From assembly GCA_964016885.1 (NCBI GenBank), contig OZ024759.1:30504001-30568000 (forward strand): DNA of 64,000 nt, in the 5' to 3' direction. Below the pieces are notes generated by a model. The model saw only the letters and a list, made by a program, of their open reading frames with translations. It searched no databases and was not told the origin of the DNA. Below, in pieces: positions 26,263-27,009 of the stretch; position 1 is the first letter of the stretch; each line of letters begins with the position of its first letter. The translations under genes were made by a program, and so were the position numbers. The stretch comes from Eledone cirrhosa. Lineage: Eukaryota.

Positions 26263-27009
26263 TGTATATAAATATATATATATATACATACATACATACA
26301 CACACACACACACACATATATATACATATATATATATATATATATATATATATATATATATATATATATATATATATATATATATATATATATATATGTA
26401 TCTATATATATGTATGTATATATATGTATATATATGTATATATATATGTATGTATATTCATGTATATTTTATATATACACTGAAAAATACGTCGAAGAAA
26501 TGTAACAGTGAATCTGCTAAATTACATCTGACGTCAGTAAAATATAATTTATGAAATATGAAGGAATATATCTATATGTACTTATTTCCCCCTCTTTAGT
26601 ATATATTTAACGAAACAACAACAGCAACAATAATAATAATAACAACAACAACAACAACAACAACAACAACAACAACAACAACAACAACAACAACAACAAC
26701 AACAACAACAACAACAATAATAATAATAATAATAATAATAATAATAATAATAATAATGATTTCATTTATTGGCCACAAGGGCCGACATATAGGGGACAAC
26801 ACAATAGACAGGGACAGTGGGGGTTTACATAGAGATCGAGTAAGTATAAATAACAAAAAACAAAATAACAATAAAAATACAACAATGAAAGTTCCCCAAT
26901 AAGAGGGATCACCACCCAGGGTTGACTCAAGCACCCCACCAGTCCTGAGCCACCCGACGCTCCTAGGGCACCCGGGAAGGGCACCCCTCTCCTTCTCGAA
27001 TTCACCAGC

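Follow-up and report, generated by a model that had tools for sequence, protein, structure and literature searches.

A 64,000-nt stretch of the Eledone cirrhosa genome (contig OZ024759.1, positions 30,504,001 to 30,568,000), hereafter the window, contains a LINE whose 3' terminus resembles that of a SINE family dispersed around it. This raises the question whether the two elements form a pair, in which a LINE protein copies the SINE by its tail and passes on its insertion target. Such a pair of the stringent type within the L1/Tx1 group had been proposed from the sequence alone. In the 3.0-Gb genome, the 3' end motif and the insertion signature shared by LINE and SINE were found to be real and a genome-wide feature. 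All routes of mobilization taken together, an ATT-targeting Tx1-type lineage is quite probably the partner of the SINE.

The LINE in the window and its family

The LINE lies complete on the minus strand (Table 1). Its terminus from 26783 to 26758 consists of the stem GGCC, the loop CTTGT, the stem GGCC, AATAAA and TGAAATC, followed by (ATT)14. The architecture of the L1 superfamily is present, with ORF1 and an ORF2 comprising APE, RT and a C-terminal zinc-binding domain. Among solved structures, human L1 ORF2p was closest to ORF2 (E 3.7e-57; R2 proteins about 1e-22). A CCHC knuckle in ORF1 is a feature of the Tx1 clade. Preference for a target sequence, a further feature of this clade according to the accessible text of PMC4494074, was seen as insertion into ATT, and into TATC in sister families. 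The designation Tx1-type is based on the architecture and the targeting and not on grouping with named elements in a tree; no named Tx1 sequence and no Tx1 name for the LINE came from the homologue search, the cluster look-up, Atlas or NCBIfam. A metagenome scan for tails outside the host genome yielded two distant fragments.

The LINE belongs to a young family, family A, sitting in (ATT)n arrays. With the last 306 nt of the LINE as query, 27 of 40 scored matches were identical over the full length. Thirty of 30 family-A loci ended in the same tail and ATT, among them five head-to-tail tandems and four loci with a SINE directly behind. Twenty longer stretches presented 16 full-length copies, each starting behind at least 15 nt of ATT, while two stretches broke near position 2313 and in two the upstream tandem copy had been caught instead; 10 of the 20 fetched copies kept the 1150-codon ORF2 frame. 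Four of the 16 full-length LINEs started right behind a SINE tail, and five behind a tail of the sister family B. The family-A tail occurred 2,585 times in the genome and a tail with a 12-nt spacer 7,090 times. At one locus (L206) a Tx1 copy carried an inverted internal segment, resembling L1 twin priming.

The SINE occurred in a short form of about 185 nt and a long form of about 215 nt, with a median distance of 7% from the consensus (107 and 40 copies). Its conserved 11-mer was present 14 times in the window at no more than one mismatch, compared with 0.25 expected; one occurrence, at 31360, lies inside ORF1 of the LINE. The exact tail motif (11-mer, 7 nt, GAAA, 2 nt, ATT) was counted 210,198 times genome-wide. 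An older spacer variant of the tail (19 matches) inflated one row of the spacer table and was discounted. The SINE copies that the sequence-only reading had listed at 4234, 21648 and 44954, with ATT on their 5' side, were present, as was the CCAATAG variant in the copy at 46109. ARAGORN reported a tRNA-Ala in the SINE head at a relaxed threshold only, in the one copy tried, and Rfam gave no match. In the octopus annotation, as far as its accessible text goes, SINEs are mostly unclassified (PMC13282606). An inverted partial SINE adjoins the tail of the SINE trimer, tail to tail, at 4790-4939 of the window.

Table 1 Features of the LINE and the SINE copies in the window
Feature	Position	Strand	Basis or remark
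Three tandem SINE units (two short, one long)	4234..4831	+	inside 13-nt duplication starting ATTAT
SINE copy, short form	17425..17612	+	sequence
Full-length SINE, short form, behind ATT array; tRNA-like head	21648..21833	+	sequence
SINE copy, short form	24094..24272	-	sequence
(ATT)14 tail / target array, 3' side of LINE	26716..26757	-	sequence
Full-length L1/Tx1-type LINE, family A, 5,824 nt	26758..32581	-	ends fixed via sister copies and head-to-tail tandems
Spacer AATAAA, then GAAATC terminus	26758..26770	-	AATAAA in all Tx1 ends displayed; SINE without AATAAA
3' hairpin: GGCC stem, CTTGT loop	26771..26783	-	in MFE fold; covariation across families
ORF2: APE endonuclease, reverse transcriptase, zf-RVT; open frame of 1150 codons	27010..30429	-	domains and translation
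ORF1	30459..32369	-	CX2CX4HX4C knuckle read from translation; no Pfam hit
5'UTR hairpin	32422..32441	-	TTTT loop in family A; sister family B has the SINE's exact 11-mer at the same place
(ATT)n, 5' side of LINE	32582..32600	-	consistent with target duplication
SINE, long form then short form	44956..45370	+	sequence
Cluster of three SINE units, CCAATAG variant among them	46125..46540	-	sequence

The shared 3' end

LINE ends were compared with a profile of 62 SINE tails, which had been found by the SINE body and were anchored by their GAAA part. The claim that the LINE end matches the SINE end was borne out: the terminus in the window, with (ATT)n from 26757, reached 17.6 bits. None of 1000 shuffles attained this score, and the seven of 5000 random positions that did were all SINE tails. 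An internal site in ORF1 of the 5.8-kb LINE scored 18.2 bits, above the LINE's own end; the significance of the match is therefore positional and does not lie in the score. The end ranked second of about 5,800 positions, by our own estimate a probability of about 0.003 when about eight LINE lineages are allowed for. In a MAFFT alignment of the SINE with the Tx1 ends the stem is free of gaps, so that the two gaps of the earlier alignment are unneeded. Loop and closing pair are the same and the second pair is flipped, G-C in the SINE versus C-G or U-G in all 13 LINE rows. A 12-nt spacer, aligned without gaps, is common to the SINE and the families B, H and I, and family A has one spacer base more. 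In total, the match between SINE and LINE covers about 25 nt.

LINE ends were sampled from sixty 10-kb stretches taken at even steps from contigs 1-8 (600 kb), and from later loci. All 14 Tx1 ends scored 6.9-18.8 bits (eight at 6.9-17.6 and six further at 16.8-18.8). The seven non-Tx1 ends, from two CR1, three RTE and two restriction-like-endonuclease families with clade labels from our own reading of the translations, scored -11.4 to 3.2 bits. A better match of another LINE family to the SINE tail, the observation that would speak against the pairing, was absent among the sampled ends.

The partner could nevertheless be a LINE of another clade that has died out or was absent from the sample, e.g., an RTE element ending in ATT, and the likeness to Tx1 would then be due to chance or convergence. 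A score of this size arises about once per 6 kb, the random sample of 600 kb yielded seven scored non-Tx1 ends, with Penelope left out and one RTE end assumed at the stop codon, and RTE-type SINEs also have duplications beginning with the tail repeat (PMC6007223, accessible part). We consider this origin unlikely, as none of 302 SINE-type tails taken without selection belonged to a non-Tx1 LINE. Nine of these tails lacked a SINE body; three were the 5'UTR of family B and the rest truncated copies. Nor did such a family appear at tails with foreign upstream DNA, of which 30 loci were read for each of two patterns. For the first pattern (143 matches) a SINE body was present at 20 loci, and no family was common to the remaining 10; for the second (1,280 matches) 23 had the body and seven looked like truncated or decayed SINEs. 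Most clades that the accessible text of the octopus annotation gives as recently active are moreover represented among those sampled (PMC13282606).

Two candidates for a hybrid family were rejected. A SINE-type hairpin followed by AATAAA had 14 matches, all 14 behind SINE bodies, and a second hybrid pattern had five matches that formed no family.

Conservation of the stem-loop in sister Tx1 families

The ORF2 sequences of sister families are 55-87% identical. At their 3' ends these families have a C-closed loop, in most cases CTTGT, followed by AATAAA, GAAA and either ATT or TATC repeats. The stem-loop-spacer-GAAA end is kept among the LINE families and the remaining 3'UTR diverges. In an alignment of 13 LINE and four SINE rows, 88% of the 68 cells of the 4-bp stem were paired, with the outermost position unpaired in 7 of the 17 rows. 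Two-sided changes were present in three of the four pairs, two of these three varying among the LINE families alone; according to a warning of the tool, the covariation counts are inflated by the relatedness of the rows. None of 500 shuffles was paired as highly, and slid controls gave 12-60%. From the covariation among the LINE families we infer a stringent recognition in the Tx1-SINE pair. Folding of both tails, suggested earlier as a way to find a shared stem-loop, gave a divided result: the hairpin appeared in the MFE fold of the LINE, but in none of four predicted SINE folds. The stability of the LINE fold did not exceed that of shuffles (z -0.61, 0.08), nor did that of any SINE fold.

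A Tx1 protein might also move the SINE in a relaxed manner and recognise only an AUU or poly(A) end, which would leave the hairpin as a relic of tail capture or as a part of LINE polyadenylation. The AATAAA behind the hairpin in the LINEs, its absence in the SINE and the predicted SINE folds without a hairpin fit this explanation, and so does the crocodilian SINEU, which in the accessible text of PMC4494074 shares a Tx1 target without a shared tail. We regard it as improbable, because two-sided changes preserve the stem across families as distant as these, and the 11-mer is retained in both SINE forms despite variation of the following spacer.

Insertion and stacking in (TATC)n arrays were seen for sister Tx1 families that have the same tail (loci L109, L081, L116 and L274-L301). 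In a tree of ORF2 C-termini, which holds only families of the host genome and unnamed relatives, the TATC families were separated weakly (84/74) from two ATT groups. SINE tails running into TATC numbered 177 genome-wide versus 210,198 running into ATT; by a rough estimate, about 220 of the former would be expected by chance. The sister families combine a common RNA signal with two different DNA targets and lend themselves to separating RNA recognition from DNA recognition.

In family B (loci L353, L355 and L218), the exact 11-mer of the SINE is present as a hairpin of the 5'UTR, at a distance of about 45 nt from the start of ORF1. It is followed by an A-rich stretch and ATTATTAT, which gives this 5'UTR the appearance of a 3' tail. 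A derivation of the SINE hairpin from this 5'UTR instead of a 3' end would have in its favour the exact identity, a score of 20.0 bits as the best site in the element and 1,765 genomic matches. It appears very improbable all the same: an unanchored match of such size is near chance for 6 kb, the loop is TTTT in family A and CTTGA in some B copies, and the terminal GAAA-ATT register would be left unexplained.

Insertion signature at the target

From 114 SINE copies, the 54 behind the tail of another element were dropped and 60 were kept for the analysis of the flanks. ATTAT was located 4-28 nt upstream in 45 of these 60, against a background of 4.8% and 2 of 60 on the opposite strand. A lack of ATT enrichment in the 5' flanks, earlier named as evidence against the pair, was thus not observed. 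Within the random sample and the window alone, nine of 15 solo copies had ATTAT upstream. Duplications of 12-25 nt flanked 29 of the 60 SINEs, 26 of them starting with ATTAT, compared with 44 of 1184 mismatched pairs (at least 12 nt). Short Tx1 copies presented duplications of 16-21 nt with non-repeat letters (L089; L129, L187; L282, L297). Truncated copies of the family-A type had a duplication in only 4 of 15 cases; the other 11 had none, several of them being inverted, deleted or nested. Full-length LINEs were located in pure ATT arrays and none of the 29 SINE duplications was pure ATT.

An ATT tail alone was rejected as proof of pairing, since a CR1 family also ends in ATT. In this control, ATTAT was upstream of 2 of 16 truncated copies and a SINE-like duplication was lacking; the duplication therefore discriminates and the ATT tail alone does not. 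That this CR1 family, abundant and ending in (ATT)n, moved the SINE is largely refuted by these flanks and by its tail score of -7.1 bits, and retains hardly any likelihood.

Age of the elements and chimeric copies

The mobilization of the SINE had been ascribed to the Tx1 family of the window or a close relative. The age of the copies favours the relative: the family-A subfamily of the window is about 1% diverged versus 7% for the SINE. Family A is too young for the SINE burst, and because of this difference an older sister is the likelier driver. Copies of family C overlap the SINE in age (82-92% pairwise identity) but carry a 6-nt loop. Subfamilies with the CTTGT loop are 0-7% apart within a subfamily, a range biased towards young copies by their selection through the exact tail.

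In three chimeras (L129, L235 and L247, the last with an approximate junction), SINE and Tx1 sequences are fused at the hairpin. These chimeras fit template switching between SINE and Tx1 RNAs, or could be deletions. Stacks of tail-only SINE and Tx1 insertions of 26-45 nt were observed at one site, sharing a duplication (L041, 1340-1480; L089).

Proposed mechanism and related systems

Our preferred explanation, that the SINE was copied by the ORF2 protein of an ATT-targeting L1/Tx1 lineage, most likely an older sister of family A, and that this protein recognises the CUUGU-loop hairpin, appears rather likely. The mechanism would start from the stem-loop-spacer-GAAA end that the LINE families retain and that the SINE carries with one base pair flipped, and would account for SINE copies located at ATTAT on one strand with duplications of 12-25 nt. 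The endonuclease would nick the strand opposite ATT, and the DNA end released in this way could anneal to the AUU repeats of the RNA. The duplication would arise from a second nick, placed about 15-20 nt further on. Each insertion would leave ATT at both ends and may thereby seed the stacks of SINEs and LINEs. By analogy to L2 proteins, ORF2p may need the hairpin.

The model for this recognition is provided by the stringent L2 elements ZfL2-1, ZfL2-2 and UnaL2, which in the accessible text of PMC4176376 have a stem-loop just before the terminal repeat, with a conserved loop and an exchangeable stem. Those elements belong to the L2 clade and their dependence was shown by experiment, whereas the recognition proposed here concerns L1/Tx1 and is a prediction. 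Stringent pairs of the L1 clade have been described in plants and a green alga, ZmSINE2/3 with LINE1-1_ZM and SINEX-3_CR with L1-1_CR, with a conserved 3' hairpin and compensatory changes shared with the SINE (PMC3747384, PMC3472496). These pairs are not from animals, share about 45-80 nt instead of about 25 nt, and no site-specific target is reported for them in the accessible parts of both papers.

In crocodilians, a SINE, SINEU, has been inferred to be moved by the target-specific Tx1-Mar, with tandem insertions around the target duplication (PMC4494074). According to the accessible text of that study, the 3' end of SINEU-1 was not found in any LINE, and SINEU has a poly(A) end. In Eledone cirrhosa, compared with this system, there are a shared tail, a tRNA-like head, a microsatellite target and more than 200,000 copies. 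The same text describes Kibi, Koshi and crocodilian Tx1 families that likewise insert into microsatellites with a repeat unit differing by family; these are (TC)n, (TTC)n, (TTCC)n and (TTTC)n, different from (ATT)n and (TATC)n here, and a SINE partner is not mentioned in it (PMC4494074).

The novelty implied by the sequence-only reading is thus reduced by the stringent L1-clade pairs in plants and alga (PMC3747384) and the Tx1-SINE pair in crocodilians (PMC4494074), as described in the accessible parts of these papers. An animal L1/Tx1 element with stringent stem-loop recognition that hands its ATT preference to a tRNA-derived SINE might be, with the chances evenly balanced, the first tail-sharing, site-specific pair in animal L1/Tx1. 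Neither a Tx1-SINE pair with a shared tail nor a partner of an octopus SINE was found in the literature search; Repbase, Dfam, Kojima and Fujiwara 2004, Ohshima and Okada 1994 and Akasaki 2010 were outside this search and may name either. If the explanation holds, the intact young LINE copies would allow a stringent Tx1 element of an animal to be tested, the machinery behind a highly abundant SINE would be identified, and the stacking of SINEs at ATT sites would be explained.

Other repeats

The CR1 family (L155-L184) is abundant and young, with a 945-codon frame and an (ATT)n end without an ATT target or a long duplication. A LINE with a restriction-like endonuclease (L117, 664-810; L104, L108, L016, L027), which we take to be Dong/R4-like, has an (AAT)n end and lies in common arrays with Tx1 and SINE copies, which it meets tail to tail. 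The window also contained fragments of a LINE with a restriction-like endonuclease and an (ACAT)n end (20681-21280 and 11270-11540), fragments of an RTE-like element with C2H2 fingers and an (ATGT)n end (24425-24960), and tandem repeats with periods of about 100 nt (22186-22628 and 37592-37999).
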